Below, piece after piece: positions 4,998 to 19,606 of a stretch of 64,000 nucleotides of DNA. A program made the translations under genes and the position numbers. The stretch's first letter is position 1. Each line of letters begins with the position of its first letter. The stretch covers positions 1,515 through 65,514 of the forward strand of contig JADGCQ010000009.1 of assembly GCA_015228925.1 (NCBI GenBank). The letters are read 5' to 3'. A model generated the notes under the pieces. That model was given only the letters and a program-made list of their open reading frames with translations. It did not search any database and was not told the origin of the DNA. Source of the DNA: Magnetococcales bacterium. GTDB lineage: Bacteria > Pseudomonadota > Magnetococcia > Magnetococcales > UBA8363.

Positions 4998-5017
4998 GGC
5001 CATCTCCATAAATGTAA

Positions 5018-5130: not shown

Positions 5131-5180
5131 TAATTGACAAACGACCGGATATAGTGGAAACTCCCCAAAAAACACCATAT

Positions 5181-5203: not shown

Positions 5204-5262
5204 CATTCGATGATGCTTTGTTAAATGGCAATCCTAGATCACAATGGCGTATGGAGAATCCA

Positions 5263-5589
5263 ATGAAACAAGACCAAACCGTCAAAGATGAGATATTAAA
5301 AATAATAAAAGAATTCAATATGTTGAAATACAGCATTGCCGCCGTTGAAAGCGATATGGATGTAAGCATCCAAAGAATAAAAAAAACGGGATCCGCTTTT
5401 TCCGAACCCAGGCGTCAAAGAATGCATTTTTTGATCATGAAACTCGCCAAGATGATTGCGGAAAACCGGGAGAGATTATTCCACGACCAATCCCACGGAA
5501 TGTGCCAAGTCGTCATCCAACTGGAACCCCATGAATCCATGACGATAACCATCGAATCCAACGTACAACAGGAGCATTTTTCATCATGA
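5263..5589 (+). CDS. hypothetical protein (first gene of the rightward unit facing the repressor)
   Basis: The track ORF is 5218-5589. I prefer the in-frame ATG at 5263 (MKQDQTVKDE...) because GGAG lies 9 nt upstream. I recognise no motif. The 3' end overlaps the next start (ATGA). Confidence 0.5.
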   Translation: MKQDQTVKDEILKIIKEFNMLKYSIAAVESDMDVSIQRIKKTGSAFSEPRRQRMHFLIMKLAKMIAENRERLFHDQSHGMCQVVIQLEPHESMTITIESNVQQEHFSS

Positions 5590-5957
5590 AAAACCCATTG
5601 CTTGCAGCCACATTTCCCGAATCGTTGAAAGAAATACGTGACGTGATTGGATTGGACAGCACGTTAAAGCTTGTGACGAGTTGTGGCGGCACCCGCGTTT
5701 TTATCCCCAAACATATCAGTGCGCAACATCGGTTGGCCAATTTATTGGGCATCCGAGCAGCGCGTCGGTTGAGTCATTATTTTGGGGGGGAGAGTGTGAC
5801 GGTGGTACGCGGGGCCCCTGCGCTCCGTGCTTTGCGTAACAAGGAGATTATTGATCAATACAGCAAAGGGGTGCGCGTCGCCGACCTAGCCAGGGCCTTT
5901 GCTCTGACGGAGCGGAGGATTTACAGCATACTATCAGAGACAAACGACAAAACTTAA
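5586..5957 (+). CDS. Mor-family (phage Mu middle operon regulator-like) transcriptional activator
   Basis: 123 aa. The sequence FPESLKEIRDVIGLDSTLKLVTSCGGTRVFIPK...AARRLSHYFGGESVTVVRG...RNKEIIDQYSKGVRVADLARAFALTERRIYSILS is colinear with the Mor/C family, with the HTH at the C-terminus. Confidence 0.8.
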   Translation: MKNPLLAATFPESLKEIRDVIGLDSTLKLVTSCGGTRVFIPKHISAQHRLANLLGIRAARRLSHYFGGESVTVVRGAPALRALRNKEIIDQYSKGVRVADLARAFALTERRIYSILSETNDKT

Positions 5958-6057: not shown

Positions 6058-6741
6058 CTAAAGCACTTTTTTCAAGGATTGCTCAATTCTATTGGACATG
6101 GAAGAGATTTCGCTGATCACCCGGTCGATATCTCCGGCCAGGTCTCTGGCAACACGGGCGGTGCTTTTCACTTCGCCAGCGACGACGGCGAACCCTTTGC
6201 CGAATTCGCCGGCACGCGAGGCTTGAATACCGGCGTTGATAGCCAACACTTCAAGTTCATTGGATATTTTTTCAATTCCATGGAGTGTTTTAGAAACGTC
6301 ACGGGTATTGCGGTCGATTTCCTGCCGCACGCTTGACAGGTCGGTGAAAACCTGATCATTGGCCTTGTTGCGGTTTTCTTCGATGATTGTGATGAACAAC
6401 ATGGCAGCACTCAGGCTGATGACCTGAGCGGTCCCCCGGTTGTTATGGAGAAAGTCTGACGTTTCAGAAGATTCCGAGGCATCGAGGATCAGATCGGCGG
6501 CAAAGTTTTTGACGGCCATTTCCGGCTTGGTCAAGGTTTTGATGCCCAAGCGCATGGCCAGGGTCATCGCTGGGGCATTGGCGTCGGGATCGACGACATA
6601 GATTGGCTCGGCCCCTTTGCTCTTCTGGAAAATTTCCAAAAGGTTTTTACTTTTTTCGCCACCGCCGACGATACCGACTTTTTTTTTGCCTTCACTTGTT
6701 TCCATTTTCCACTCCAACGTTTGCCCACCCAACAGTCCCAT
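6058..6741 (-). CDS. atypical short protein: Rossmann-like N-domain fused to a minimal methyl-accepting chemotaxis (MCP) signalling-tip segment
   Basis: The C-terminal ELEVLAINAGIQASRAGEFGKGFAVVAGEVKSTA matches the invariant MCP hairpin tip (LALNAAIEAARAGExGRGFAVVAxEV). The N-terminal KKVGIVGGGEKS...IYVVDPD resembles a dinucleotide-binding beta-alpha-beta unit. There are no TM, HAMP or methylation helices. Total length is 227 aa. Confidence 0.7.
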   Translation of the reverse strand: MGLLGGQTLEWKMETSEGKKKVGIVGGGEKSKNLLEIFQKSKGAEPIYVVDPDANAPAMTLAMRLGIKTLTKPEMAVKNFAADLILDASESSETSDFLHNNRGTAQVISLSAAMLFITIIEENRNKANDQVFTDLSSVRQEIDRNTRDVSKTLHGIEKISNELEVLAINAGIQASRAGEFGKGFAVVAGEVKSTARVARDLAGDIDRVISEISSMSNRIEQSLKKVL

Positions 6742-6939: not shown

Positions 6940-7722
6940 ATGGAGGATTTTACTCTGTTGCGAAAGAAAGCGACCAAACGATTGTTGCGCATGCATTTTG
7001 AGAGTCAGATCGGCCATATCGGCGGCAACTTATCCGCACTGGATGCCATGCTGTATCTGCACCATTACGTGATGGGCAAAAATGATCTCTTTTTGTTATC
7101 CAAAGGGCATTCTGCGGGAGCTTTGTATGTCACTCTCTGGACATTGGGCTTATTAAGTGAATCCGACTTGGAAACTTTCCATCAAGATGGCACCCGCTTG
7201 GCGGGTCATCCGATACCGAATTGGGGGCCGGGCATTCTCATGGGGACGGGCAGTTTGGGACATGGTGTTTCCCTGGCGGCTGGCATGGCTCTTGCTAAAA
7301 GGTTCCAGAAACAACCAGGGCGGGTGTACTGCTTGACCTCGGATGGGGAGTGGCAGGAGGGATCGACATGGGAAGGGGTGATTTTTTCCCGGCATCAACG
7401 GCTCAACAATTTAACTCTACTTGTGGATGTTAATGGTCTACAGGGTTTTGGTTCCACTCACGAAGTGGCCTCTATGAATGACCTTGCCCCGCGTTTGACA
7501 GGATTTGGTCTGCATGTGGTCGAAGCGGATGGGCATGATCCAGAGAGTATTCGTTGCGCTGTGAACCAGCAGGAGGCGGCAACCCAAGGCCCCTTCGTTA
7601 TCCTGCTCAAGACGGTCAAGGGCAAGGGAATTGAGGGCATGGAAAACCGCATGGAGTCTCATTATCTCCCTTTGGATCGACCCCGTTATGATCAGGCCAT
7701 TCAGGCTTTGGAGATCCCATGA
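6940..7722 (+). CDS. transketolase, N-terminal (ThDP pyrophosphate-binding) subunit of a split enzyme
   Basis: Motifs are GHIGGNLSALD, LSKGHSAGALY, GSLGHGVSLAAGMA and SDGEWQEGSTWEG...LLVDVNGLQ (GDG-N ThDP motif). I trimmed to ATG 6940, which has GGAAAGGA upstream. Confidence 0.85.
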   Translation: MEDFTLLRKKATKRLLRMHFESQIGHIGGNLSALDAMLYLHHYVMGKNDLFLLSKGHSAGALYVTLWTLGLLSESDLETFHQDGTRLAGHPIPNWGPGILMGTGSLGHGVSLAAGMALAKRFQKQPGRVYCLTSDGEWQEGSTWEGVIFSRHQRLNNLTLLVDVNGLQGFGSTHEVASMNDLAPRLTGFGLHVVEADGHDPESIRCAVNQQEAATQGPFVILLKTVKGKGIEGMENRMESHYLPLDRPRYDQAIQALEIP

Positions 7723-8624
7723 GACATGCGGCCTGTTCCAGTTGGATCAATCTTTTTCGACGACAAAATTTTGTTTTCCTGACGGGTGATCTGGGTTTTG
7801 GGGCATTGGAGCCGTTGCGTGACGAAATGGGGCAGCATTTTATTAACGTCGGTATTGCCGAACAGAACATGGTTTCTGTGGCGGCAGGCATGGCCCGCAT
7901 GGGGATGAGTGCTTGGATTTACAGCATTGCCCCATTTTGTTACGCTCGTCCTTTTGAACAGATACGCAATGACGTCTGCTTACACGGCCTGCCTGTTAAA
8001 ATTGTTGGCAATGGTGGTGGTTATGGTTATGGCACCATGGGGTCGAGTCACCATGCGTTGGAGGATTATGGTACACTTCTGAGCTTGCCTGGCATGAGGG
8101 CGTATGTGCCTATTTTTGCTGCTGATGTTGATCCGATGGTTAAGAAAATGGCCCAAGAAAGCCATCCGGCCTACCTGCGGTTGGGGCGGTGCGAAAGGCC
8201 CAAGGAGTATGCCATTCCCCCCTATGCCCCCTGGCGACGCCTGTTAACGGGTGGTGGAACCCCTGCGTTGGTGATAGGGCCGTTGGCAGGAGGGGTGATT
8301 GAAGCCTGTTGGATTTTGCCGGAGGGGCACCGCCCAGAAATTTGGGGTCTTTGCCAGTTGCCGATGACGGCATATCCGCCACCGCAGGCTTTTATTGACC
8401 TAGTACGATTACGCCGGAAACTTGTCGTTATTGAGGAGCATGGTGTTCATGGCAGTGCTGGCCAGATGTTGGCACACACGTTTTTACAGAATAACATTTC
8501 TTTGGATAGCTTCGTACACATGCACGCCGTGGGTTACCCTTCGGCAACATATGGTTCGCAATCTTTTCATCGCAAAGAGTGTGGATTGGACAAGAACACT
8601 CTGCTGAAGATCTTAACCGGATAA
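7719..8624 (+). CDS. transketolase, C-terminal (pyrimidine-binding) subunit
   Basis: The sequence FLTGDLGFGALEP...GIAEQNMVSVAAGMA...RPFEQIRNDV is typical of TK/DXS-like central and C-terminal domains. The start overlaps the previous stop by 4 nt. Confidence 0.85.
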   Translation: MRHAACSSWINLFRRQNFVFLTGDLGFGALEPLRDEMGQHFINVGIAEQNMVSVAAGMARMGMSAWIYSIAPFCYARPFEQIRNDVCLHGLPVKIVGNGGGYGYGTMGSSHHALEDYGTLLSLPGMRAYVPIFAADVDPMVKKMAQESHPAYLRLGRCERPKEYAIPPYAPWRRLLTGGGTPALVIGPLAGGVIEACWILPEGHRPEIWGLCQLPMTAYPPPQAFIDLVRLRRKLVVIEEHGVHGSAGQMLAHTFLQNNISLDSFVHMHAVGYPSATYGSQSFHRKECGLDKNTLLKILTG

Positions 8625-8695
8625 GGGGGGTCGAAAAGTAACCATGGTTCATGTGCTATCAAGACCGTCGATACCAAAACGGGGCGTGTACTGAC

Positions 8696-9640
8696 ATGAG
8701 TATCACTGAAGCCAACCAGCGTCTGGAACTTCAGGCGACCAAGTGTATTTTTTGCGGGGATGCCCCAAATCTGGAACGTTATCCACCGAGGTTTTCTCCT
8801 GAAAAATTGTCTGCATACACCTTCAGTGCCCGTCGAAACCGGCAACGGGAGCATTATCGTATCGTCTGCTGCGCCAACTGTGGACTGGTCCGTTCGGATC
8901 CGGTCTTGAAAGAAGAGGTACAAAATCAATTTTACCGAGAAAGCGAGTTTTTGTTTTCAGAAGAAGCTCCGTTTGCTGCCAGAACCTATGCCTATCTTCT
9001 GGAGAGGCTGTTACGGCAGCATCAGGGGGATAAACCGGTCCACAGCGTCTGCGAAATTGGTTGTAGCAGTGGTTTCTTCCTGGAACAATGTATAGACTTG
9101 GGCTTTGACGACGTGATAGGCTTTGAACCAAGCATTCAATGTCGGCAACATGCCGCACCGAAGGTGCGTGACCGTATCATTACCGCTCCTTTTTCTCCAG
9201 AACATGTCGCTGGGCGACGCTTTGATCTTTTGTGTAGTTTCCATGTTTTTGATCATTTGCGAAACCCGTTACAGGTTTTGTCTGATGCGGCGACCCATCT
9301 GAATGGGGGCGGTTATGTCTTCCTGGTTTGTCACGATGTCGAAAGTCTGGGTGCCCATATGCTGGGGAGTCGTAATCCTATTTTTGACGTTGAACATATT
9401 TATCTGTTTTCAAAAAAAACCATTAGCATGATGCTGGAAAGAACGGGGTTTACCACATTGGAAGTTGGCTCGCTGACGAATACCTATCCTTTGGGGTACT
9501 GGATGAGGATGTTCCCCGGTGCGGGTGGCATTGCTCAATGGTTGCCGCGCATGTTGGCACGTTTGCCAATATCTTTGCGGGCAGGTAACCTTTATGCGTT
9601 TGGCCGTAAGGGAGGGGGGGGAGGCAATGCTGACAGATAA
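8696..9640 (+). CDS. class I SAM-dependent methyltransferase with N-terminal Cys4 zinc-ribbon-like segment
   Basis: The paired cysteines are CIFCGD...CCANCGLV, followed by SAM motif I EIGCSSGFF. The start could be 8651 or 8696. Confidence 0.7.
   Translation: MSITEANQRLELQATKCIFCGDAPNLERYPPRFSPEKLSAYTFSARRNRQREHYRIVCCANCGLVRSDPVLKEEVQNQFYRESEFLFSEEAPFAARTYAYLLERLLRQHQGDKPVHSVCEIGCSSGFFLEQCIDLGFDDVIGFEPSIQCRQHAAPKVRDRIITAPFSPEHVAGRRFDLLCSFHVFDHLRNPLQVLSDAATHLNGGGYVFLVCHDVESLGAHMLGSRNPIFDVEHIYLFSKKTISMMLERTGFTTLEVGSLTNTYPLGYWMRMFPGAGGIAQWLPRMLARLPISLRAGNLYAFGRKGGGGGNADR
9614..9621 (+). repeat. G8 homopolymer
   Basis: The sequence reads aagGGAGGGGGGGGAGGCaATG. The tract encodes the GGGGG tail of the methyltransferase and forms the SD region 6 nt before the GT2 ATG at 9627. 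Confidence 0.9.
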
Positions 9641-10682
9641 GATGATCTCAGTGGTAGTGACCTGCTACCGTGATGAAGGAAGCGTCAGGGAATTACTGCG
9701 TCGCCTTGAGACAGTAATGCAGGAGGTGACCCCCAACTGGGAGGTGATCTACGTCAACGATGCCAGTCCTGACCAAGCAGAGCAGGTGCTTTTGGAAGAG
9801 GCCCGGACCAATAAACGCCTAACGGTGATCTCCCATTCGCGCAATTTTGGAGCCCAGGTGGCGTTTACCACGGGGATGATGCAGGCCAAAGGCGACGCCG
9901 TGGTAATTATGGATGGTGATTTACAAGATCCACCGGACTTAATTCATGATTTTGTTCGTCTCTGGATAGAGAAGTATGATGTTGTCTATGGTATTCGCGC
10001 TGAACGCACGGAAGGGTGGGCGCGCAACCTTGGGTATAAAGTATTTTACAGAATATTAAAAAGGATTTCCTACCTAGATGTCCCCGTAGATGCTGGGGAA
10101 TTTTCTTTGATGGATCGTGTCGTCGTTGATGTGATCCTCCACGCTGAGGAACGGGATCGTCTGGTTCGAGGGTTGCGCGTTCATGCCGGATTCAGACAAA
10201 CGGGAGTTCCATTCAAACGTCCGGCCCGCTTTTCCGGCGAATCCACGCAAAGTCTGCTAGACTATGTCATGTGGGCGTTTAAATCTTTTACCAGCTATTC
10301 CTTGTTTCCACTGCGCCTGATTACGGTGATGTCATTTCTATTAACATTGGTGTCGTTCCTGTTTCTTCTGTACTTTCTGGCCGGTTATTTATTAGGTCTT
10401 CCAGCCCCTCCCGGTTTTATGAGTCTGATGATGATCATATTGACGTTGGGAGCCATCATCATGTTTTCCCTGGGGATGATCGGTGAATATCTGGGACGAC
10501 TTTTTTTAGAGATCAAACAACGCCCACAACCGGTGATCAGTCGATTGGTAAACGATCACCGTGACCATCCTCTGCCCTGGTTGGGGAGAGTCAACGATTT
10601 TCGTGAACAGTCACCCGACCAATCCACAGCATCTTCCCTGTTGCGGGATGGTGAGAAGCGGGATGGGCATAGTTCCGAGTAA
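9627..10682 (+). CDS. polyprenyl-phosphate glycosyltransferase (GT2; DPM1/ArnC/GtrB/CsbB-like) with C-terminal TM helices
   Basis: Motifs are ISVVVTCYRDE, YVNDASPD, and MDGDLQDPP (DxD). Two C-terminal hydrophobic helices follow (LFPLRLITVMSFLLTLVSFLFLL; MSLMMIILTLGAIIMFSLGMIGEY). I trimmed the track ORF to ATG 9627. Confidence 0.85.
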   Translation: MLTDKMISVVVTCYRDEGSVRELLRRLETVMQEVTPNWEVIYVNDASPDQAEQVLLEEARTNKRLTVISHSRNFGAQVAFTTGMMQAKGDAVVIMDGDLQDPPDLIHDFVRLWIEKYDVVYGIRAERTEGWARNLGYKVFYRILKRISYLDVPVDAGEFSLMDRVVVDVILHAEERDRLVRGLRVHAGFRQTGVPFKRPARFSGESTQSLLDYVMWAFKSFTSYSLFPLRLITVMSFLLTLVSFLFLLYFLAGYLLGLPAPPGFMSLMMIILTLGAIIMFSLGMIGEYLGRLFLEIKQRPQPVISRLVNDHRDHPLPWLGRVNDFREQSPDQSTASSLLRDGEKRDGHSSE

Positions 10683-10702
10683 GGCGAAGCGGGAGAGTTA
10701 TT

Positions 10703-11470
10703 TTGCCAGAACTGGATTTGCAAGAGCAGTTTCGTCCGCCGGACAACCTTCCACCGGGACACTTGTGGTTAGGCAGGGTGCTGTTTGCCTTGCGTCCCTG
10801 GCTGGATTTGCAGGTGGGGTCGGTTTTGCTGCCGTTGATTCCTTGGCTGCGTGGTCGCCGAGGCAAGGTGTTGGAAGTGGGTTGCGGAGCGCAACCTTAT
10901 CGGCATTTTTTATCCGATGCCAGTGTTTATCGCTGCTTGGATTGGTCCGGGGCAGAACCCTACTTCAATTATGCGACTCCCGATACGGAAAGGTATCATG
11001 GGGAGCGGTTTCCCGTTGAAGACGGTTGGGCAGAGCATGTGTTTCATACAGAAGTTTTGGAGCATGTTTGGGACATGCCTGGTTTTTTGGCAGAGTGCCG
11101 CCGGGTGATGGCGGCTGGAGGGAGTCTGTTTTTCACCATACCATTTCAGGCGCGCTACCATTACATTCCCCACGATTATTGGCGGTGTACTCCGGCGGCT
11201 TTGGAGCGCATGCTGCGTGAGGCAGGCTTTCAAGATGTCCAGATCACTTCCCGTGGGACCGATGTGACCGTGGCCATTTACAAAGTTGTCAGTGTGGTCT
11301 ATCGGCTGTTGTTGAGCAAGCAGTGGGTCAACACTGCGATTGGCATCGTTTTACTTCCGTTGTTGGTGACTGGTTTGGTGCTGGGACAGATCTCCCTTCG
11401 CAGCCGGTGGGGATCGACGGATGATACGTTGGGTTATGTGATCACTGCTTCTGTTGCCAGTAGCCAATAG
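10703..11470 (+). CDS. class I SAM-dependent methyltransferase with C-terminal membrane anchor
   Basis: SAM motif I is VLEVGCGAQPY and the acidic loop is LEHV. C-terminal hydrophobic helices are present. The start is a TTG taken from the track, so it is uncertain. Confidence 0.6.
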   Translation: MPELDLQEQFRPPDNLPPGHLWLGRVLFALRPWLDLQVGSVLLPLIPWLRGRRGKVLEVGCGAQPYRHFLSDASVYRCLDWSGAEPYFNYATPDTERYHGERFPVEDGWAEHVFHTEVLEHVWDMPGFLAECRRVMAAGGSLFFTIPFQARYHYIPHDYWRCTPAALERMLREAGFQDVQITSRGTDVTVAIYKVVSVVYRLLLSKQWVNTAIGIVLLPLLVTGLVLGQISLRSRWGSTDDTLGYVITASVASSQ

Positions 11471-11505
11471 CGTCAATTCGTTACGTTTCCCAAAGGACAT
11501 CCCCC

Positions 11506-13062
11506 ATGCCGGTACGGATCACCTTGTACGATTATGCCTACGAAACTCTGGCCATTCAGTATCTGGCATCCATACTGATGCAGGAGGGTTTTCCGGCCAG
11601 TGTCCATTACGACTTATCCATGGATATGGATTATCTGGATCAGGATTTTTTCCTGACCAAATGGCTCTCGCTAACCCCCTTGGAGGCGGCCAAAGGGATA
11701 TTGGAACACAAACCGGAGGTGGTGGGGTTTTCGCTGCTGACCCCTTTTTATGTGAAGCTACGCCGCATTATCCGTGCCGTTAAAGAATTGGCACCGGAGG
11801 TGGTTGTCGTGGCGGGTGGACCACATCCGACGCTGGTTCCGGCGGGTACATTGGAAAATCACGATATTGATTTCATTTTTGTAGGCGAAGCAGATTTTTC
11901 TCTTCCGAATTTTCTCAGACTTTTGGAAAACGAAGGACTTGAAAAAGTGAGGTCATTGCCTAAAGAGGCGATGCCAGGGGTATGGAATCGTTTTGGTGAG
12001 GAGATTAGGGATCGTGGTTACGGCCCGTTCCGGGGTAACCTAGATGAGGTACCGTTTCCAGAGAAGGACGCTTATTATTTGCGTAATCCTTCCTTGAGAC
12101 TTTTGTATACGGCAACGTGCAGTCGGGGCTGCGTATTTTCCTGTACGTATTGCAATAGCAGTACTTTGCGAAAGATTTATAAAGAGGAGTGCGGAGAACG
12201 TTATTTTCGCGTCCGTTCGGTGGGTAATGTCATTGAGGAACTGCGGCAAGCTAAAGAACGTTACCGGCCAAAGTATGTGATGTTTTTGGACAATCTGTTT
12301 GCCCCGCAAATATCATGGCTGCGGAAATTTGCCGAAGAATATCCTCGTGAAGTTGGTTTGCCATTTTTTTGCGAGACCAATCCCATGTCACACACCAGAG
12401 AAAGTTTGGAGTTAATTGCCAAAGCGGGTTGCGTGTTGTTGCAGTTTGGATTCCAGAGTGCCAATGAAGAGGTACGCCGTACCATTCTTGGTCGTCGTGA
12501 GTCCAATGATCGTATCCGGGAGCTGGTTGTGGCGGCCAGAGAATTGGGAATGTTTGTGTGTGTAGACCACATTGCCAACCTGCCTGGGGAGGTGCGGGCA
12601 CATTTGGATGAAGCTGTAGCTTTATATCAAGAAATTCGTCCTAATTGGATCAATCTTGGTTTTTTGCAATATTATCCAGAATCAGACATCATTGAAATAG
12701 CCATTTCTCGCCGTTTTATGACCCGGGAAGAGGTATTGCCTATTTTCCGCGGTGAGAGCCAAAGTTCGTTTCGTTTGTTGGCCCGTTCAGGACTTGGAGA
12801 ATTTTACCATACTTTGCCCATACGTTTGTTTGCCGCATTCAAGCTTCCGCCACGGATGGGTAATTGGGTGATTGGGTTGTTGGAACACAGACTGTTCACC
12901 CGATCCCTCTCCTGGAGTGCTTCGCTATTCATTTACGCATCCAGAATTTTTTATGCGTTCACAGACAGGAGGGATTTTCTGATACGGCACCATATTGTTC
13001 GTAACCTCTACGTCATTAAAAACTTGGCGTTAGAAAAATGGAGACTGCATGGCGGACACTGA
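11506..13062 (+). CDS. B12-binding-domain radical SAM enzyme (class B)
   Basis: The N-terminal flavodoxin-like B12 domain reads VVGFSLLTPFY...VVVVAGGPHPT. The radical SAM cluster motif is CVFSCTYC (Cx3Cx2C). 518 aa. Confidence 0.85.
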   Translation: MPVRITLYDYAYETLAIQYLASILMQEGFPASVHYDLSMDMDYLDQDFFLTKWLSLTPLEAAKGILEHKPEVVGFSLLTPFYVKLRRIIRAVKELAPEVVVVAGGPHPTLVPAGTLENHDIDFIFVGEADFSLPNFLRLLENEGLEKVRSLPKEAMPGVWNRFGEEIRDRGYGPFRGNLDEVPFPEKDAYYLRNPSLRLLYTATCSRGCVFSCTYCNSSTLRKIYKEECGERYFRVRSVGNVIEELRQAKERYRPKYVMFLDNLFAPQISWLRKFAEEYPREVGLPFFCETNPMSHTRESLELIAKAGCVLLQFGFQSANEEVRRTILGRRESNDRIRELVVAARELGMFVCVDHIANLPGEVRAHLDEAVALYQEIRPNWINLGFLQYYPESDIIEIAISRRFMTREEVLPIFRGESQSSFRLLARSGLGEFYHTLPIRLFAAFKLPPRMGNWVIGLLEHRLFTRSLSWSASLFIYASRIFYAFTDRRDFLIRHHIVRNLYVIKNLALEKWRLHGGH

Positions 13063-13723
13063 GGAGATTACACGTAATCTATTAGAGATGTATGGGCATG
13101 ATGATTGGATCATGCGCGGCAACTTTCGCATTTTTCTGGAATTGTCCGGCATAGCGAGTTTACCTCGTTCTGCGGCAATTTTGGATTTGGGTTGCGCTAT
13201 GGGGCATTTCATGCGGCTGCTACAGAACCAGGGTTTCAGTCATGTAACAGGTGTGGATGCCGCTCCCGCCATGGTGGATATTGCCCGAAAAATAACCGGT
13301 TGTACCATCCATTTGAGCGATGCCACCCTGTGTGATCAATTATTGACTCCGGGGAGTCAGGATGTCATCGTCATATCCGACCTGATTCACCACCTGGAGA
13401 AAGTGAGTGAATGGGAGAGATTGCTGATGGGGTGTCATCGACTTTTGAAACCGGGTGGTATTTTGGTGATTCGGGAACCTTGGCCTACGCTGATAGTGCG
13501 ACTGTTGCAGTTTTTTTCACAATTCCCTGTATTGTATCGAGGGGCAATGGCGGCGCGGTTACGTTCTTTTCAAGAAGAGAAAAATCTGCTTGAGCATTTT
13601 TACACCCACTGGATAACCGATTATCCGCAGCATATTGCCCGGGCCGGGTTTGCGAAAGGTCGGGATCTGGTCTGGCTGGTCCATCGGATAACGGTCTGCG
13701 TCCGTCGGGAGTCAACACCGTGA
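13049..13723 (+). CDS. class I SAM-dependent methyltransferase
   Basis: Motif I is ILDLGCAMGHF, with DVIVISDLIHHL and LKPGGILVI also present. It overlaps the upstream gene by 14 nt. Confidence 0.75.
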   Translation: MADTEEITRNLLEMYGHDDWIMRGNFRIFLELSGIASLPRSAAILDLGCAMGHFMRLLQNQGFSHVTGVDAAPAMVDIARKITGCTIHLSDATLCDQLLTPGSQDVIVISDLIHHLEKVSEWERLLMGCHRLLKPGGILVIREPWPTLIVRLLQFFSQFPVLYRGAMAARLRSFQEEKNLLEHFYTHWITDYPQHIARAGFAKGRDLVWLVHRITVCVRRESTP

Positions 13724-14184
13724 GACCGGGAATGCACCTGCTGTCGGCGGTTGGTTTGGGTGCTGTGGTATGGCACCAGACCGGGGTGGTATCGTGGGCA
13801 TTGGCCATAGCGTCAGGGGCTTTTTTGTTGGATTTGGACCATATGGTGGATTATCTGGTTCACAAAAAAGGGAGACAGATTTCTATTCAAGAATTTCTGG
13901 TGCCGGGCCAACCGTCCACTTGGCAGAGAATGGTTTTCTTTATGCACGGTTATGAGTGGATTGTGGGGTTGGGCTGGCTTGCCTGGAACTATCATCTGCC
14001 CATTCTGTCATGGATGGTTTGCGGTGCAGGTATCCATCTTCTCATGGACGAAGTGGGCAACCGATTGCCAGGCAACAGACATCGCATTTCGCCGTTCTTT
14101 TATTTTTTCTGTTTTCGTTTGAGCAAGGGATTTCAGACGAAAAAAATTTCCTATTGGGTTAACGAGGAAGGTCAAGAAGTATGA
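13720..14184 (+). CDS. small polytopic membrane protein, DUF457/YdjM-like (putative metal-dependent hydrolase fold)
   Basis: It has about 4 hydrophobic helices, with LLDLDH and IHLLMDE His/Asp motifs. Both ends overlap neighbouring genes by 4 nt. Confidence 0.45.
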   Translation: MRPGMHLLSAVGLGAVVWHQTGVVSWALAIASGAFLLDLDHMVDYLVHKKGRQISIQEFLVPGQPSTWQRMVFFMHGYEWIVGLGWLAWNYHLPILSWMVCGAGIHLLMDEVGNRLPGNRHRISPFFYFFCFRLSKGFQTKKISYWVNEEGQEV

Positions 14185-15242
14185 TTGATCTGCGAACCAT
14201 GGCTGGATTGGGCTACCAAATCGTGCGAAGCAATGTGCGCAAGGAAAGACAGCCGGTTTTTCTCAGTCTGTACATTACCAACCGGTGCAATTTAAAATGT
14301 AGCTATTGTTTCGTTGTCGATCCGCGTTTTTCCAAAGAATTTTTGCGGATGCAACTCAGTTTGGGAGAAATTAAAGAAATAGTCGATGAATTTTATGCCA
14401 TGGGCATGAGAATGATTTTCATGCTTGGTGGGGAACCTTTAGTCCATAAGGAGATTGGTCCCATTATCGAGCATATTGTCAACAAAGGGATTTATTTACA
14501 GGTTGTAACCAATGGTCAGTTGATTGAGCGGAGGTTGGAATCCTTGCGCCGGGTTCATGGTTTATGTGTCAGTTTGGACGGTTTGGATGAAGCCACGGAT
14601 GTGATTCGTGGTGCTGGTGTGTATGAGAAAGCTTTACAAGGTATTCGTGTGGCTGTGGCCAATCGTATTCCAACGCGGGTTCATGCGGTGCTAACGCGCA
14701 ATAATTTGCACCATATACGTCCTTTGGCTGAGTTGTGTCGATCTTTGAAGGTAGCGATGACCATTTCGCCACCCAATTTTCTTGGAGAGGCGGAACAGGA
14801 TTATTTAAATATCACCAGTGACGAATACCGGAAGTTTTGGAAAGGTTATCTGGACTTATACATCGAAGGTCTTCCCATAGCGAATTCACCCCTGGCCATT
14901 AAGAAATGTATGAACTGGCCTAAACATTATCACCATTATATCCGGCGGGGAGAAGAATTCCCCGGGTATAAACCCACATTTTGCATGAATGGGTATACAT
15001 ATGTTGCCGTTGGGGCCGATGCTACCATGTATAATTGTATTAATTTGGGTCCCACCCATGGTCCCAACATACGGACCGTAGGTTTGCGTAAGGCTTGGGA
15101 GCAATTGTTGGATTATCGCCCCGACTGTGTTTCCTGCTCCAGCATCAATTGTATTGAGACCTCCCTTTTACTCAAGCTGCGTTTAAGTGCTATTTGGGAA
15201 GGGATGCGTTTTCATAAGGGTATGGTGCCGAATGGCAGTTAA
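14181..15242 (+). CDS. radical SAM enzyme with C-terminal SPASM/twitch-like Cys cluster
   Basis: The cluster motif is ITNRCNLKCSYCF (Cx3Cx2C), with GGEPL also present. The C-terminal cysteines are FCMNG...YNCINLG...DCVSCSSINC. Confidence 0.85.
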   Translation: MIDLRTMAGLGYQIVRSNVRKERQPVFLSLYITNRCNLKCSYCFVVDPRFSKEFLRMQLSLGEIKEIVDEFYAMGMRMIFMLGGEPLVHKEIGPIIEHIVNKGIYLQVVTNGQLIERRLESLRRVHGLCVSLDGLDEATDVIRGAGVYEKALQGIRVAVANRIPTRVHAVLTRNNLHHIRPLAELCRSLKVAMTISPPNFLGEAEQDYLNITSDEYRKFWKGYLDLYIEGLPIANSPLAIKKCMNWPKHYHHYIRRGEEFPGYKPTFCMNGYTYVAVGADATMYNCINLGPTHGPNIRTVGLRKAWEQLLDYRPDCVSCSSINCIETSLLLKLRLSAIWEGMRFHKGMVPNGS

Positions 15243-15253
15243 TTCCAAAGTAT
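15207..15253 (+). repeat. 47-bp direct repeat, copy 1 (covers the radical-SAM stop and the GT-C start)
   Basis: The sequence cgttttcataagggtatggtgccgaatggcagttaattccaaagtat matches 16842-16888 at 44/47 positions. Confidence 0.9.
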
Positions 15254-16773
15254 ATTTACAAAAAATATCTGCGAAAATACAGGAATGGCACCTTTTCGTG
15301 GCGATATGCCTATATCATTTTATATTGGCACTTTATTATAAGGAAGTTTCGGGAGTCTCTATAGAGACTTCATGGAATCTTTGGACTATGCAACTGATCC
15401 CAAGGGATCTTCTTGAACATAAATTCCTGGAAAGCCTTTGGAATCTGCACGTGCAACCGCCCCTTTATAATGTTTTGGCAGGGATGATCCTTAAATTATC
15501 CCCTTCCAATTATTACCCAATTATGCATTATTTTAATATAGGACTTGGGACAATCGCAAGCGGAATGACATTTATTATTATTGCAACAATCACTCGAAAT
15601 CGGATATTTTCTTTTATCGTTGCTGCTCTCCTTATAAACAACCCAGCCATTTATTTATACGAAGCTTATAATTTATATGCCTTCCTTACAAGTTATTTTG
15701 TTATACAGTCTGTCTTTTTTGTAGCTTGTTTTGTCCGGGACAAAAAATCCCATAACCTTATATTATTTGTTCTTTCTCTCAATCTTTTAGCCTTGACGCG
15801 GGGCAGTTTCCATTTATTTGTCCCTTTGTCGGGTTTGTTTTTCTCATGTCTTATTGTTCCAAGGCGTGAGGTATTTCGGGTGTTTTTTTTGTCGTTATTG
15901 ATGTGCATTCCCACATTAGGCTGGTATGGGAAGAATCAGGTTAAATTTGGATTCTTTGGTACAAGCAGTTGGTTAGGTGGCAATTTTTTCAATGCTGTTC
16001 TTGGGGGATACCAATACCGGGACACACCAGAAGCGCGGAGTTATGTTGATAATCTTGTTGCCAAAGGGATCATTGATCCTATGGTAGGTCGGTATCCTAC
16101 GGCCCTGTTGAGTGTGGCAACTATTCGGGAGGAGGGGTTTAACAAACAATCGACGATTGAGGCTCTGAATAGAGAAAATTTTATGAATATCAATTATATC
16201 GATGTTTATAAAGTTTATTTACGCAGTTCCCTTAATGTAATCAGGTATGATCCGGTGCAGTGGTTAAAGATTATTTCCACATCTTATGAGAGGTATTGCC
16301 GCCCTTCAACGGTTTTCAAGCATCTTATTTATGGCCGGACGAAAAATGAACCAGGCAACGCTGCGAAAATGACGTTGCCTGTGTTCGTCTATGAAAATAT
16401 TTTCCTTGGCAAGCAATGGATGCGTCCTAGTAACCAACCGGGTGGAATCAAGATGGGATCTATTTTATTTTTTGTTTTTCCCTTGTCGTTTGTATTGTAT
16501 CTGGTGCTGCTGTTGCGGGAGGGAAATGCGTCCTGGTGTGGCATTATCGGTTACATCAGAGATAATCCTATCCTGTTTGTCATTCTAACCTTTGTACTCT
16601 ATAGCACCCTGGTCTCGTGCATGTTTGCTTACGATGAGAATGAGAGATATAAATTTGATATTGAACAAGTATTCTACGTTGGTCTTGCGGGTATCTGCTA
16701 CACGTTATGGCCTCGATCATCGTTTCGGCCACCAGGGTGCGTGATCGGATCTTCCTTCTGCTCAACAGGCTGA
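15232..16773 (+). CDS. polytopic membrane protein, GT-C fold glycosyltransferase-like (ArnT/PMT family 39/83-like)
   Basis: It has at least 10 predicted TM helices, an early periplasmic-loop motif LHVQPPLYNVL (compare the conserved xPPL of ArnT/PMT) and a large loop in the C-terminal half. ATG 15232 (MAVNSK) overlaps the upstream stop. The gene is AT-rich. Confidence 0.6.
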   Translation: MAVNSKVYLQKISAKIQEWHLFVAICLYHFILALYYKEVSGVSIETSWNLWTMQLIPRDLLEHKFLESLWNLHVQPPLYNVLAGMILKLSPSNYYPIMHYFNIGLGTIASGMTFIIIATITRNRIFSFIVAALLINNPAIYLYEAYNLYAFLTSYFVIQSVFFVACFVRDKKSHNLILFVLSLNLLALTRGSFHLFVPLSGLFFSCLIVPRREVFRVFFLSLLMCIPTLGWYGKNQVKFGFFGTSSWLGGNFFNAVLGGYQYRDTPEARSYVDNLVAKGIIDPMVGRYPTALLSVATIREEGFNKQSTIEALNRENFMNINYIDVYKVYLRSSLNVIRYDPVQWLKIISTSYERYCRPSTVFKHLIYGRTKNEPGNAAKMTLPVFVYENIFLGKQWMRPSNQPGGIKMGSILFFVFPLSFVLYLVLLLREGNASWCGIIGYIRDNPILFVILTFVLYSTLVSCMFAYDENERYKFDIEQVFYVGLAGICYTLWPRSSFRPPGCVIGSSFCSTG

Positions 16774-16841
16774 CGATGTTCATAAATTTGCGAAGGCTTC
16801 TGAATTTCTTGGTCCGGTTGGCCCAAACGATGATCAAGGCC

Positions 16842-16888
16842 CGTTTTCATAAGGGCATGGTACCGAATGGCAGTTAATTCTAAAGTAT
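16842..16888 (+). repeat. 47-bp direct repeat, copy 2 (relic of the same gene junction)
   Basis: It re-encodes ...RFHKGMVPNGS-stop and then MAVNSKVSFGGIIH-stop. The upstream frame reads LLNFLVRLAQTMIKARFHKG, against LLLKLRLSAIWEGMRFHKG in the intact gene. Confidence 0.9.
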
Positions 16889-16907
16889 CTTTTGGTGGGA
16901 TAATTCA

Positions 16908-19337
16908 CTAACTCTGGGCTGGAAGCTGATCAGTGGAATTCCCAAAGAAAAAGCGGGAAAGCCAATGGATCCATCGAAGGTAGAAAAAATCTTTATACGG
17001 GGGTTCATAGGTTAAAATAACTTCGTGAATTCCCTGCGGGACCATGCAACCCAAAAAGGTGTGATAAGCGGGAAAAGCCCCGGTCGGGACTCCATCGATG
17101 CGTACCCGCCAAGCCGGATTGTAATTGAAGACCGACACGAGAATGCCTAGTGATGAGTAATCAACCCTCAGGATAATCTTGTCTGGGGAATATAAAATAT
17201 TTTGTATCTCTGCCCATTGGTTTTCCGATGGATCTCCAAAATCCACATTCCCATCTCCCTCCTGCATAAAAACATGCGATTGCAATTGCTCCCTGGAAGA
17301 TTGGCCAAGTTCCTCAAGCAATTTTTCCTTGGTAGAAAAAATCTTCTGCGCAAATACCCCAAAATAACGGGGAAACGGGTCGGTGAGACGATAGATATGA
17401 AGGATTAGGTTTTCACGCAAGCTCGGATCACCAAAACGAGACCAAAAACCAAAGGCGGCCAAAGGTTTGCGCACTTGAATGGATTCCACATGGCTCAATT
17501 CTGCATCATTGAGGCGTACAGGAGAGAAGACATAATGAACATTGGCAAGGCGTAACAGATTAATGTTTATCGATTCTCCCATTCTGAAAGGTTCATCCAA
17601 AAGCATGGTTTCCGGGAGAAGACGGAAGTATAATTTGTAGCTCCCATGGGGAAAAGGGCCAAGCCTGTTGAGAATCGGAGCGGTCATGACGTTCCAATAC
17701 TCTAAAAACCTTTTTGGAATTAGGGCATTGTAGCCGTCAATCGTTTCAAAATTATGACTGATGAGCAAAGATGGAAAATAATTTTTTTCTCTGATCATCG
17801 CCGCTCTGAATGGCATGGTATCCAACTCCGTCAGAGAATGGTGTACCCTGCGCAATTCAGGTTGATCCAGGTATTCCTGTTGACTACCACTGCGTATCGT
17901 CATCCCTATCGACTGCGTAATCCAACCCAATGTCCCGAAGGTGGTGAGCAAAAAAAGAAGGGATAGTGAGCCATAAACCAACCATTCATACCCTTTTCGC
18001 ATCCTTGAACTCGATGGCGTCCGTATTGACAGTGTTAAATAGCGTGCAGAAAATAAAAGCATCGTCAAAGGGAAAACCTGCGCAAACCGCCAAAATCGTA
18101 TAATCTTAAAAAGACCCAGTGAAAACAAAAATTCGACAAGGAATCTGGAGCCGGCCAGGAGGAATGGTAGAAGAAGAAACAAAATATCCAGCATATTCCT
18201 AGAGTATCTTTTTTCCCGCACCCCATGAAAAAAACATCCAATGGTAGCCACAAACAAACACCATCCAAGGCTCCAAGAAAATGGCGTGAGGAAATAATTG
18301 CCGATAATGGGACGATTTGTTCCGATCACTGCTGAGAAACTAGCAAAACTCTCAATTGTATGTATAACAATATCAATACTATACCAGTATATCCTCTTGA
18401 TAAACAACACTATAATGTAAACCCAGGACAGGGAAGTCGTCTCAACCAAAGGTTGCAGCAACGTCTGACTTTCTTGGATCGCTGGGTTGAAACGATATGA
18501 AAGGGGTATGGCAAACTGAACCGCCATAAAAATGGCAAGGGTTGGAATAACCATTCCAGCATGAAGGAAGGTTATGTAAATAATTCTCGATTTTAAACAA
18601 CCGCGCCCATCATAAAATAATAGAATATAAATAATTATAAATGTTGATATATACACAATATCAGCAACTTCAGCCATAAAAAAAGCCGCGTAGAAAAATC
18701 CCATCGCAAATGCTATGCTACAGGAGATCGTTTTTTTTCTGAGGTTTCCTTCAATCTCTATCAGATACGCCAACCCTCCCGTAACCCAAGGGAGTACGGC
18801 ATAGGCCATATTGGAGAAGGGGTCGTTCCGGACAGAAGTGAGGACGTAATAGAGCGTTGCCAAAAATCCTGTCAATAACCGCGATCCGTTTTCACGTTTC
18901 AGAAGAAAATAGGCCCCGGAAATCGACAGAATCATATAGAGCGCAACATTGATACGATATGCTGTCATCGGATCAAACAGATTAAATAAAATTTGATTGA
19001 TTCCTACAAATTTTTCATCCTGAGAAAGTCCATCAAAACCGGCAACGAAATTGGGATGCCAGTAGGACAGGCCGTGTTTTTTATAATTCGACGCATTTGA
19101 AATGAGTTGTATCAGAGGACCATCGACACCATCACTGAACCGGACATAGGAATCCTCTCCCAGCATAAAATAAGGGGCGAAAAGAACGATAGCCACAACG
19201 ATGAGGACGCCCCCCCAAGCAGCTTTTTTTTCATGCTGAAATCTCTCCGGTTTTTGTTCAGTTTGAATTGAGAATCCCCCGCCCCTCAGGTCTCCATTCC
19301 CATCAAAATCATCGAAGGATAGGCACGATGAAACCAA
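16908..19337 (-). CDS. YfhO-family polytopic membrane protein (GT-C type extracytoplasmic glycosyltransferase-like); start codon problematic
   Basis: 809-codon frame with about 13 or more TM helices. The C-terminal soluble domain ending ...FNYNPAWRVRIDGVPTGAFPAYHTFLGCMVPQGIHEVILTYEPP is typical of YfhO. The frame opens at a TTG (19337) without an SD. The only SD-ATG (19234) is +1 out of frame behind an A8 tract; see findings. Confidence 0.65.
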   Translation of the reverse strand: MVSSCLSFDDFDGNGDLRGGGFSIQTEQKPERFQHEKKAAWGGVLIVVAIVLFAPYFMLGEDSYVRFSDGVDGPLIQLISNASNYKKHGLSYWHPNFVAGFDGLSQDEKFVGINQILFNLFDPMTAYRINVALYMILSISGAYFLLKRENGSRLLTGFLATLYYVLTSVRNDPFSNMAYAVLPWVTGGLAYLIEIEGNLRKKTISCSIAFAMGFFYAAFFMAEVADIVYISTFIIIYILLFYDGRGCLKSRIIYITFLHAGMVIPTLAIFMAVQFAIPLSYRFNPAIQESQTLLQPLVETTSLSWVYIIVLFIKRIYWYSIDIVIHTIESFASFSAVIGTNRPIIGNYFLTPFSWSLGWCLFVATIGCFFHGVREKRYSRNMLDILFLLLPFLLAGSRFLVEFLFSLGLFKIIRFWRFAQVFPLTMLLFSARYLTLSIRTPSSSRMRKGYEWLVYGSLSLLFLLTTFGTLGWITQSIGMTIRSGSQQEYLDQPELRRVHHSLTELDTMPFRAAMIREKNYFPSLLISHNFETIDGYNALIPKRFLEYWNVMTAPILNRLGPFPHGSYKLYFRLLPETMLLDEPFRMGESININLLRLANVHYVFSPVRLNDAELSHVESIQVRKPLAAFGFWSRFGDPSLRENLILHIYRLTDPFPRYFGVFAQKIFSTKEKLLEELGQSSREQLQSHVFMQEGDGNVDFGDPSENQWAEIQNILYSPDKIILRVDYSSLGILVSVFNYNPAWRVRIDGVPTGAFPAYHTFLGCMVPQGIHEVILTYEPPYKDFFYLRWIHWLSRFFFGNSTDQLPAQS
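19210..19231 (-). repeat. A8 (19224-19231) and G7 (19210-19216) homopolymers at the 5' end of the YfhO-like gene
   Basis: The minus strand reads ATGAAAAAAAAGCTGCTTGGGGGGGC. I confirmed the tract lengths against the track translation (HEKKAAWGG). Confidence 0.85.
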
Positions 19338-19606
19338 AACTCATTGTCTGCATCAAGCAGCGTTCACCAACGTCTGATTCTTGCGCTGGCCGAGGAAGCT
19401 TGGCATTGGTTGACCAACTGCAACAAGGTATCCAGAAAAAAGGGTTGAACATTGATTTGGAGACGGTTCACTGTCTGGGGGAATGTCATCAGGGGCCGAA
19501 TATGCGTCTTGCCCCTGGAGGCGAATTTTTTCATGGCGTGGAAACCAAAGACATCGAGACGATTATCGATAAAATGGCGGATTTCCTCACCAAGAATCCC
19601 CCGTGA
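19328..19606 (+). CDS. thioredoxin-like [2Fe-2S] ferredoxin
   Basis: The sequence is MKPKLIVCIKQR...CAGRGS...VHCLGECHQGPNMRL, with 4 Cys in the spacing of the NuoE/thioredoxin-like Fdx family. I trimmed the track ORF to ATG 19328. Confidence 0.7.
   Translation: MKPKLIVCIKQRSPTSDSCAGRGSLALVDQLQQGIQKKGLNIDLETVHCLGECHQGPNMRLAPGGEFFHGVETKDIETIIDKMADFLTKNPP

Follow-up and report, generated by a model that had tools for sequence, protein, structure and literature searches.

The subject of this study is a group of ten genes at positions 6940-16773 of a 64,000-nt stretch of Magnetococcales DNA (hereafter the window; positions 1,515 to 65,514 of contig JADGCQ010000009.1, assembly GCA_015228925.1), a candidate cassette for the synthesis and transfer of a modified envelope sugar. 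All ten genes lie on the forward (+) strand, and the list of open reading frames (ORFs) shows only overlapping or tight junctions between them. The six overlaps, of 4 nt (7719/7722), 14 nt (9627/9640), 14 nt (13049/13062), 4 nt (13720/13723), 4 nt (14181/14184) and 11 nt (15232/15242), are those on which a sequence-only reading of this DNA had based its claim of an operon, and every one is present in the ORF coordinates; the remaining three junctions of the run are gaps of 20-35 nt. A promoter and terminator scan gave results at about chance level and is uninformative on the ends of the operon. The Rfam scan of the whole window returned zero matches, so that no cobalamin or S-adenosylmethionine (SAM) riboswitch was seen, and the tRNA scan of the window returned none either.

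The first two genes encode the thiamine-diphosphate-binding subunit (TK-N, 6940..7722; Pfam Transketolase_N, 4.3e-30) and the pyrimidine-binding subunit (TK-C, 7719..8624; Transket_pyr, 6.6e-22) of a split transketolase-like enzyme. They are followed by the class I SAM methyltransferase MT1 (8651..9640; Methyltransf_23, 3.7e-23), a GtrB/ArnC-type polyprenyl-phosphate glycosyltransferase of the GT2 family (9627..10682; Glycos_transf_2, 9.4e-27), the membrane-anchored class I methyltransferase MT2 (10703..11470; Methyltransf_23 and Methyltransf_11), a class B (B12-binding) radical SAM enzyme, here B12-rSAM (11506..13062; B12-binding PF02310, 6.4e-16, and Radical_SAM PF04055, 2.9e-23), and a third class I SAM methyltransferase, MT3 (13049..13723; Methyltransf_25, _11 and _12, 1e-16 to 2.5e-14). 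The run is completed by a 154-aa integral membrane protein, a candidate membrane metalloenzyme with no significant Pfam or NCBIfam match (13720..14184), a second radical SAM enzyme, rSAM (14181..15242; Radical_SAM, 2.5e-24), and a 513-aa protein assigned as a PMT/ArnT-like GT-C from its AlphaFold2 (AF2) fold and family bridging, which occupies a variable slot at the end of the cassette (15232..16773). The enzyme classes given in the sequence-only reading were all confirmed by Pfam and NCBIfam, and its statement that a nucleotide-sugar synthase, a GtrA/Wzx flippase and a polymerase are missing holds as well, since Pfam found none of them within 6940-19606.

The surroundings of B12-rSAM relatives in assemblies, species-representative genomes and metagenomes were searched with the window proteins. 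The nine genes from TK-N to rSAM recur together in nine further loci, in two of which (L002 and L007) MT2 is not detectable. The full set is collinear with the window in L001 (Thermodesulfovibrionales), L003 (a 728-kb ENA contig), L004 (groundwater Nitrospirae) and L123 (Desulfobacterales). It is headed by rSAM in L087 (Magnetococcales), forms two divergent operons in L088 (Magnetococcales, locus L088/L089), and is arranged as B12-MT3-membrane-rSAM-TK-TK-MT1-GT2-MT2 in the metagenomic locus L092. The two loci with no detectable MT2, from Ca. Magnetomonas plexicatena (L002) and Nitrospirae nDJH6bin1 (L007), share the order TK-TK-rSAM-B12-membrane-GT2-MT, and consistent partial sets are found on the short contigs L005, L006, L093 and L105. 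Altogether the gene order takes at least four forms and the carriers belong to at least four phyla, plus a fifth (Omnitrophota) in which the set is truncated. The survival of the set through such shuffling across at least four phyla argues that the nine genes are functionally coupled; judged by gene content and order, the cassette is a functional unit and no chance adjacency. Co-occurrence across genomes, which the sequence-only reading had named as a check on its grouping of these genes, is thus borne out in nine further loci.

The limits of the family were traced along the B12-rSAM relatives, of which only 42 proteins among 5.8 billion reach at least 39% identity. Relatives at no more than 31% identity (L012 onward and L106-L121) are accompanied, if at all, by an occasional weak match to a methyltransferase or a radical SAM enzyme. 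Between 33 and 48% identity, the loci L008-L011, L015, L100, L101 and L103 have no other cassette genes and L099 retains MT3 alone, the short contig L102 (43%) still has MT3 and rSAM, and L002 and L007 (45-47%) carry the set, so that the boundary of the family is not sharp.

By their sequence matches, the neighbours of the cassette elsewhere are envelope-sugar genes, and the flanks in the window differ from them. The cassette is adjoined in L001 by a DegT aminotransferase, an SDR (epimerase) and pilin-like genes, and in L003 by RmlA, RmlC and UDP-sugar enzymes; a UDP-sugar dehydrogenase is likewise among the neighbours. The neighbours in L002 are a lipid A acyltransferase and MlaA, and three further B12-binding radical SAM genes flank the cassette there (58-2825 and 15654-17183), which suggests a larger envelope-modification region. 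Expanded variants of the cassette were seen in two loci. The metagenomic locus L095 contains an extra B12-rSAM together with a NodU/CmcH-type carbamoyltransferase. L123 (1-21554) has, upstream, a second B12-rSAM, genes for a 2-hydroxyacid dehydrogenase and a GmhA-like SIS isomerase, and a gene resembling inositol phosphatases; downstream, it has a methyltransferase::GT2 fusion and three more methyltransferases.

In the window itself, the cassette is met by a convergent gene on the minus strand (16908..19337; NCBI HQL75_03305, there 762 aa) for an 809-aa YfhO-like (DUF6044) predicted GT-C protein, which is in turn adjoined by a divergent ORF for a candidate thioredoxin-like [2Fe-2S] ferredoxin (19328..19606, plus strand). 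The only Pfam match of the 809-aa protein is DUF6044 (PF19510, 9.2e-10). It has 1557 relatives among 1.84 billion representatives, and in an alignment of 30 family members (the window protein and 29 relatives) DUF6044 is found in 29 and YfhO (PF09586, best 3.9e-12) in 28, which upholds its earlier assignment as YfhO-like. Past the first membrane helix of this family, D69 is invariant, at least 80% of the members have an acidic residue at D72, and D102 is conserved; YfhO proteins are regarded as GT-C enzymes (PMC5836110). The smaller ORF matches PF01257 at 25.0 bits against a cut-off of 24.8 (1.9e-5) and an NCBIfam 2Fe-2S ferredoxin model at 1e-10, under its cut-off, and on these matches the ferredoxin call is plausible.

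The two genes are adjacent, as had been stated, with each on its own transcription unit. Neither of them, nor an alpha/beta hydrolase gene, is present in any of the cassette loci examined, and the unit is therefore 6940-16773 and not 6940-19606; on this comparative evidence, the YfhO-like gene and the ferredoxin are bystanders. Their inclusion in the system by the sequence-only reading is not supported, for the YfhO-like gene because it is convergent to the cassette, with no co-operonic pairing with GT2, and absent from every related locus, and for the ferredoxin, together with its proposed role as a radical SAM reductant, because its absence from the related loci leaves it without comparative support. 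A dedicated reductant function of the ferredoxin was accordingly rejected for lack of conservation.

The residues of the transketolase-like pair were compared with those of E. coli TktA in one MAFFT alignment. H26, H66, H100, D155 and N185 of TktA are conserved in TK-N and E411 and H473 in TK-C, and this holds for the thiamine-diphosphate/metal and catalytic residues of the window pair and of six orthologous pairs alike. The aldose-acceptor pocket of TK-C is altered in the same pairs (H461 to Gly, D469 to Met/Asn/Ala), the S385 and H261 regions are absent, and of the pocket residues only R358 and R520 (Arg/Lys) remain. In canonical transketolase, H461, D469 and S385 hold the phosphorylated aldose. 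The alignment thus describes a non-canonical, transketolase-like enzyme with intact thiamine chemistry and an acceptor pocket unlike that of the pentose-phosphate enzyme.

GT2 is the cassette gene of highest conservation (66-69% identity). Its best solved relative is Synechocystis GtrB (5ekp), matched at 2.6e-66 and 227 bits over residues 7-307 against 28-329; ArnC structures follow at 1e-33 to 5e-37 and dolichol-phosphate mannose synthase at 8e-13. The NCBIfam models for PgfS (2e-55) and ArnC (1.6e-41) are each matched under their cut-offs, and hydrophobic segments at 224-289 correspond to two C-terminal membrane helices. By family, the protein is a polyprenyl-phosphate sugar-loading enzyme, and its earlier placement in the GtrB/ArnC type is supported by the full-length match to 5ekp and by the ArnC matches.

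The three methyltransferases are distinguished by features outside the catalytic domain and by position. MT1 has a Cys-rich N-terminal segment and cassette-locus orthologues at 50-56% identity. In MT2, a GSxDDxLGY motif comes after a C-terminal transmembrane helix (207-234), and 7/7 orthologues have both. MT3 is located immediately 3' of B12-rSAM in the window and in every collinear locus, and its presence is less clear in the gene order of L002 and L007.

In B12-rSAM, the CxxxCxxC cysteines C209, C213 and C216 are invariant among 18 sequences, and a C-terminal extension of ~100 aa is conserved. The window protein has a deposited counterpart of 100% identity on a 66-kb contig of a Magnetococcales metagenome-assembled genome. 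The protein falls below every NCBIfam equivalog cut-off, the best match being ApyD at 106 bits against a cut-off of 750, and its closest solved structures are AprD4 (6e-10) and TokK (8.5e-7). AprD4 is a dehydratase and no methylase. The second radical SAM enzyme is likewise under every NCBIfam cut-off, with HpnH, MoaA and SPASM maturases as top matches; among solved structures it is closest to BlsE (1.3e-14), followed by MoaA, DesII and viperin. Its C-terminal Cys motif DCVSCSSINC is conserved and the DCVSCSSINCIE motif is kept among the orthologues, and these C-terminal cysteines probably bind an auxiliary cluster. For both radical SAM enzymes, the nearest relatives of solved structure have soluble sugar derivatives as substrates.

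The 154-aa protein has about four helices, and its invariant residues in eight orthologues comprise a His, DxDH, a second His, HxxxDExGNR, FY, R and GF. No significant match was found in Pfam or NCBIfam, where YdjM appears merely at E 0.76-2.4, and the comparison with the GtrA family gave no match at E up to 5. A single-sequence AF2 model (predicted local distance difference test, pLDDT, 53.5) was unusable. With this conserved His/Asp signature, the protein looks enzymatic and not transporter-like, and from its sequence it looks like a membrane metalloenzyme.

The 513-aa protein (528 aa if counted from an upstream GTG) itself matches no Pfam model. Its AF2 model, built from a 22-sequence alignment, has a pLDDT of 89.3 and a predicted template-modelling (TM) score of 0.91, and is almost wholly helical, with about a dozen long helices in agreement with the hydropathy profile; GT-C enzymes have 8-13 transmembrane helices (PMC5836110). 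Foldseek ranks 1-36 of the PDB are GT-C enzymes throughout, with ArnT (5ezm) at the top with probability 1.0 and with AftB and Emb also among the matches. The probabilities are 0.9-1.0 for ranks 1-32 and 0.54-0.98 for ranks 33-36, at E values of merely 2e-3 to 0.25 and TM scores of 0.27-0.41. Neither the 513-aa family profile nor the 809-aa protein found a match in sequence searches of PDB chains. Within the 22 aligned sequences, PMT (PF02366) is matched by six (best 3.9e-5) and PMT_2 by three (1.6e-6), and an LHxQPPLYN motif is near-invariant, which resembles the HPPL motif of protein O-mannosyltransferases. By its modelled fold and by this family bridging, the protein is a PMT/ArnT-like GT-C, as the sequence-only reading had proposed.

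A large membrane protein adjoins the core in every complete locus. These slot proteins fall into at least six groups with undetectable mutual similarity: the window protein (513 aa) with that of L084 (501 aa), those of L001 (526 aa) and L004 (584 aa), those of L002 and L007 (390 aa each), and single proteins of 723 aa (L003), 701 aa (L087) and 586 aa (L088). A profile-profile comparison between the 513-aa and 809-aa families was marginal, with 55% probability. The protein L085_808, which is encoded next to a 513-aa-family gene in L085 and is no cassette slot protein, reached 81% against the YfhO-like profile.

Two copies of a 51-nt direct repeat (15207..15257 and 16842..16892; 92% identical, blastn E 2.6e-15) bracket the 513-aa gene. 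Copy 1 comprises the last 36 nt of rSAM and the start of the 513-aa gene, and copy 2 sits past the 513-aa stop codon as a non-functional remnant of an rSAM tail and a GT-C start. The differences between the copies within the rSAM-tail part are synonymous, and before copy 2 a remnant of the rSAM tail can be followed at the protein level as far as 16812 (21 aa, 62%). Copy 2 is directly adjoined by a 28-nt inverted repeat (16709-16736 / 16814-16841), and the rSAM tail KGMVPNGS, directly before the stop codon, is found in the rSAM of the window alone. The direct repeat looks like a recombination scar that cassette swapping left where the core meets the transferase slot.

The modules of the cassette have different relatives. 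A smaller related cassette in L084 (3723-13353; GCA_002753595.1, Magnetococcales-type) encodes, in this order, a B12-rSAM, TK-N, TK-C, an SDR(epimerase/dehydratase)::GT2 fusion, a methyltransferase, the 501-aa GT-C and a 586-aa protein. Its GT-C is 64% identical to the 513-aa protein and its TK pair 60-62% identical to that of the window, and its GT2 (40%) and B12-rSAM (24%) are distant. The TK-N of the window is 60% identical to that of this Magnetococcales mini-cassette versus 37-42% to those of the other full cassettes, whose TK pairs are 56-66% identical to one another (L003 apart, ~45%) and ~43-44% identical to the window pair. In a tree, the three Magnetococcales cassettes cluster by their GT2, B12-rSAM and rSAM, and an origin of the inner seven genes from Nitrospirota was rejected on this ground. 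By these comparisons, the TK pair and the GT-C are foreign to the full-cassette lineage, and, as the relationships of the modules differ, the window cassette is a mosaic of modules with different histories.

The composition of the distal part was also considered. The GC content is 40.0% in the 513-aa gene (41% at third codon positions, GC3) and 43.3% in the 809-aa gene (GC3 45%), against 45-54% in the remaining cassette genes and a whole-window mean of 51.1%. The minimum over 1 kb, 38.7-39.3% at 15-16.5 kb, is equalled in the window only by 52.5-53 kb, and since GC3 is also low, the AT-richness is not only an amino-acid effect. The distal dip seen in the sequence-only reading is therefore real, and the size given there (23-38% against 60-65%) is not, as these figures are the extreme values of individual 60-nt lines. 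The idea of a mosaic acquisition, which that reading had derived from the dip for the distal part, is retained on the better grounds of the direct repeat and the different lineage of the TK pair and the 513-aa gene.

From these observations, 6940-16773 probably encodes a polyprenyl-phosphate-dependent extracytoplasmic glycosylation system of the Gtr/Arn/CsbB-YfhO kind with an undescribed large tailoring module. In the proposed mechanism, GT2 would load a sugar from a presumed nucleotide-sugar substrate onto undecaprenyl phosphate at the inner membrane face. Because GT2, MT2, the 154-aa protein and the GT-C are membrane-embedded or membrane-anchored, the sugar would then be remodelled largely while lipid-linked. 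B12-rSAM would modify an unactivated carbon, C-methylation being the most likely reaction. The second rSAM may transform the sugar by radical chemistry like that of BlsE, DesII and AprD4 (a decarboxylation, deoxygenation or epimerisation), and MT1, MT2 and MT3 would add O- or N-methyl groups. The TK pair may transfer a two-carbon ketol unit onto a keto or aldehyde sugar intermediate, or supply an unusual ketose precursor. The 154-aa protein, as a putative membrane metalloenzyme, could catalyse a hydrolytic step on the lipid-linked intermediate, in a position analogous to that of ArnD. After flipping by a route to which no gene is assigned, the PMT/ArnT-like GT-C would move the finished sugar to a periplasmic acceptor, for example lipopolysaccharide (LPS)/lipid A, a surface protein or pilin. 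The terminal transferase would be exchangeable between loci and lineage-specific, like the serotype-specific GtrC.

Several observations weigh against this reading. The cassette encodes no GtrA/GtcA, ArnE/F or Wzx flippase, and no nucleotide-sugar enzyme is found inside it in the window. In the 513-aa family, the first-loop acidic residue is in no fixed alignment column and no Asp/Glu is invariant; the residue is present in 21/22 sequences in a P-x-[DE]-x-L or [DE]-x-x-L-L context, with a register shift of two residues. Alignment by hhalign of the slot proteins of the other loci with the 513-aa and YfhO-like profiles gave probabilities of at most ~30%, so that these proteins are at most putative GT-C enzymes. 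A Nitrospinota locus (L096/L122, on a 283-kb contig) has neither the TK pair nor MT2, so that these are dispensable or encoded elsewhere. The chemistries of the two radical SAM enzymes are inferred from distant relatives, both proteins being far below the curated equivalog cut-offs.

The strongest competing explanation, possible though we give it a limited chance, is that the tailoring occurs in the cytoplasm: the TK pair, both radical SAM enzymes and the methyltransferases would together yield a nucleotide- or phospho-sugar of unusual structure (e.g. branched, C-methylated or chain-extended), which GT2 would load only when finished and the GT-C would then transfer. TK-N, TK-C, MT1, MT3, rSAM and B12-rSAM of the window are indeed without a clear transmembrane helix, and the solved relatives of the two radical SAM enzymes work on soluble substrates; however, MT2 is membrane-anchored in 7/7 orthologues and the conserved, enzyme-like 154-aa protein is integral to the membrane. 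The TK pair keeps the phosphate-site residues R358 and R520 (Arg/Lys) of transketolase, but has lost H461, D469 and S385. The GmhA-like SIS isomerase and the phosphatase upstream in L123, and the SDR::GT2 fusion of L084, which implies nucleotide-sugar chemistry just before loading, would fit a cytoplasmic route, whereas the core is without a nucleotidyltransferase or sugar kinase.

Synthesis of a membrane lipid or a free glycolipid head group, comparable to the HpnH/HpnI/HpnJ hopanoid side chain or calditol and with the large membrane proteins as unrelated neighbours or transporters, is improbable. HpnJ, HpnH and a lipid-biosynthesis B12 radical SAM family are among the top NCBIfam matches of the radical SAM enzymes, all far below cut-off, and L002 adjoins the lipid A acyltransferase and MlaA. 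GT2, however, is a full-length GtrB/ArnC type (227 bits to GtrB) with no HpnI-type matches, and none of the loci contains squalene, hopene or isoprenoid genes. The sequence of the large membrane protein is not conserved between loci, but such a protein is present in every complete locus and is assigned to the PMT/ArnT GT-C family in the window and L084. The hopanoid pathway proper was rejected, given the scores far under cut-off, the absence of isoprenoid genes and a GT2 of GtrB and not HpnI type.

A cluster for a ribosomally synthesised and post-translationally modified peptide (RiPP) or another secondary metabolite, with a peptide as the presumed substrate of the radical SAM enzymes and methyltransferases and of glycosylation by GT2, is very improbable indeed and was rejected: the best NCBIfam match of B12-rSAM is the RiPP enzyme ApyD and SPASM-type peptide maturases are among the matches of the second rSAM, but every score is far under cut-off, genes for a precursor peptide, protease and exporter are absent, a GtrB-type GT2, a GT-C and a transketolase-like pair are foreign to RiPP clusters, and envelope-sugar genes neighbour the cassette in other loci. 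Both the head-group route and the RiPP cluster are much less likely than the cytoplasmic route.

The preferred reading, tailoring of a sugar on its polyprenyl carrier, invites comparison with established systems. A three-component system consists of a GT-A enzyme acting on undecaprenyl phosphate (C55-P), a flippase and a GT-C (PMC5836110). By its gene content, the cassette follows a logic like that of Gtr, Arn and CsbB/YfhO, and lacks the GtrA-type flippase, a defining feature of the three-component type. In the Gtr systems of Shigella and Salmonella phages, the flippase GtrA, GtrB and the serotype-specific GtrC glucosylate the O-antigen. The likeness to them lies in the loading enzyme, as GtrB (5ekp) is the closest solved relative of the cassette GT2, in its conservation while the sequence of the terminal membrane transferase varies between loci, and in the phage-type regulators 1 kb upstream of the cassette. 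Unlike Gtr, the cassette has no GtrA-family protein, its terminal enzyme is PMT/ArnT-like, it includes eight additional tailoring genes, and the B12-rSAM family is absent from viral contigs.

The Arn pathway (ArnA, B, C, D, E/F and T) modifies lipid A with 4-amino-4-deoxy-L-arabinose (L-Ara4N), and its deformylase ArnD acts after loading of undecaprenyl phosphate (Und-P). The cassette GT2 is ArnC-like (5e-37), ArnT heads the structural matches of the 513-aa protein, and the membrane-bound MT2 and 154-aa protein suggest post-loading processing, as in Arn. In contrast, no homologues of ArnA, ArnB, ArnD or ArnE/F are encoded in 6940-19606, and the tailoring chemistry is unrelated. No formyltransferase/decarboxylase, DegT, deformylase or SMR-type flippase was found in this interval, and DegT and SDR genes flank some other loci only.

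CsbB/YfhO, GtlA/GtlB and PgfS/PgfM glycosylate teichoic acids or surface proteins (PMC5836110, PMC7389260, PMC11092751). The cassette resembles these pairs in combining a C55-P GT-A enzyme, matched to PgfS at 2e-55, with a GT-C, and a YfhO-like protein adjoins it. They differ from it in transferring unmodified N-acetylglucosamine, galactose or glucose without tailoring genes, and, compared with CsbB/YfhO, the YfhO-like gene is here convergent and not conserved with the cassette.

Two further precedents concern the chemistry. B12-radical SAM enzymes C-methylate sugars in moenomycin (MoeK5) and gentamicin (GenK/GenD1) biosynthesis, MoeK5 acting on a lipid-linked saccharide. The cassette likewise has a class B radical SAM enzyme in a sugar-tailoring context, but no specific sequence relationship to these enzymes is shown and the context is an envelope glycan and not an antibiotic. 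Mycobacterial decaprenyl-phosphate arabinose is remodelled on its carrier by DprE1/E2 and then used by Emb/Aft GT-C enzymes. Remodelling of a sugar on polyprenyl phosphate before GT-C use would be common to both, and AftB and Emb are fold matches of the 513-aa protein; however, the remodelling enzymes are other ones and the cassette has no phosphoribosyl-pyrophosphate transferase step. Gtr, Arn, CsbB/YfhO and Pgf deliver simple or lightly processed sugars, and we know of no polyprenyl-phosphate monosaccharide system for which chemistry of the kind predicted here has been reported. The literature searches on the gene combination, on DUF6044 and on a link with magnetotactic bacteria found no description, nor was there a family model for the combination, in agreement with the sequence-only reading that it is not a described pathway.

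The flanks of the window contain several features of separate interest. Upstream of the cassette, at a distance of 1-2.7 kb (4275-5957), are genes for a phage-type CI/LexA-like S24 repressor (phrog_4, 3.8e-39) and for a late transcriptional activator of the Mor type (phrog_836, 6.5e-33), beside an ORF with a weak likeness to Mu Gam; no further phage genes are in view. The search of viral contigs for the B12-rSAM family found no relative, and a phage-borne cassette is thus unsupported despite these CI- and Mor-like genes. Between the Mor-like gene and the cassette, on the minus strand (6058-6741), lies a gene for a 227-aa protein with little beyond a methyl-accepting chemotaxis protein (MCP) signalling domain (5.8e-19) and with no membrane or sensor part, which may be a truncated chemoreceptor. 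Farther upstream, a 402-aa ORF (1997-3205) with weak GT2/HpnI-like matches overlaps by 158 nt the listed start of a sigma-54 activator (3048-4265), whose true start is probably downstream; a second sigma-54 activator is located at 28098-29192. Housekeeping and flagellar genes are also present in the flanks, and no magnetosome genes were seen in the window. About 38 kb downstream of the cassette are genes for a UDP-glucose dehydrogenase (54580-55896) and a phosphomannomutase (55900-57294). A second low-GC patch (52000-53900), which at 38.4% in 1-kb windows equals the GT-C region, precedes them, and a 409-aa ORF with no Pfam match (52661-53890), just upstream of the UDP-glucose dehydrogenase, may be another acquired envelope-glycan gene.

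The named carriers of the cassette are strongly skewed towards magnetotactic bacteria of several phyla; the skew is seen in the window, L002, L006, L007, L087 and L088 as against L001, L003, L004, L122 and L123. Six of the named carriers are magnetotactic, namely three Magnetococcales metagenome-assembled genomes, Ca. Magnetomonas plexicatena, nHLHbin2 (Omnitrophota) and nDJH6bin1 (Nitrospirae). A set of 168 magnetically enriched genomes bearing magnetosome genes has been published (PMC7602337); the names nHLHbin2 and nDJH6bin1 have the form used there, and two of the four species-representative genomes with the cassette are from this set. Magnetotactic status is established for none of L001, L003, L004, L005/L122 and L123. 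Cultured magnetotactic bacteria such as Magnetococcus marinus and Magnetospirillum are not among the close B12-rSAM matches, Magnetospirillum moscoviense having only a distant relative (27% identity). The skew may reflect shared habitat or sampling. A farther-reaching proposal, which we regard as rather unlikely, sees in the cassette a modular envelope-glycan system that spreads by horizontal exchange and is characteristic of magnetotactic members of several phyla (Magnetococcales, magnetotactic Nitrospirota and Omnitrophota, with Nitrospinota and Desulfobacterota as possible additions), and that would build a chemically unprecedented Und-P sugar (radical C-methylated, multiply methylated and extended or branched by thiamine-dependent C2 transfer) and attach it to a lineage-specific surface acceptor via a swappable GT-C.

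The cassette predicts new sugar chemistry on a lipid carrier and defines unannotated families, among them the 154-aa membrane enzyme, the membrane-anchored methyltransferase and the variable slot proteins. Its exchangeable terminal slot, with the putative scar in the window, would provide a natural experiment on acceptor specificity. If real, the magnetotactic skew would indicate that these bacteria have an envelope trait in common or exchange genes with one another. Finally, if the farther-reaching proposal is true, the cassette would be the first case of a lipid-linked envelope sugar modified by B12-radical SAM and transketolase-like chemistry, and it would be a trait other than the magnetosome that magnetotactic bacteria share.

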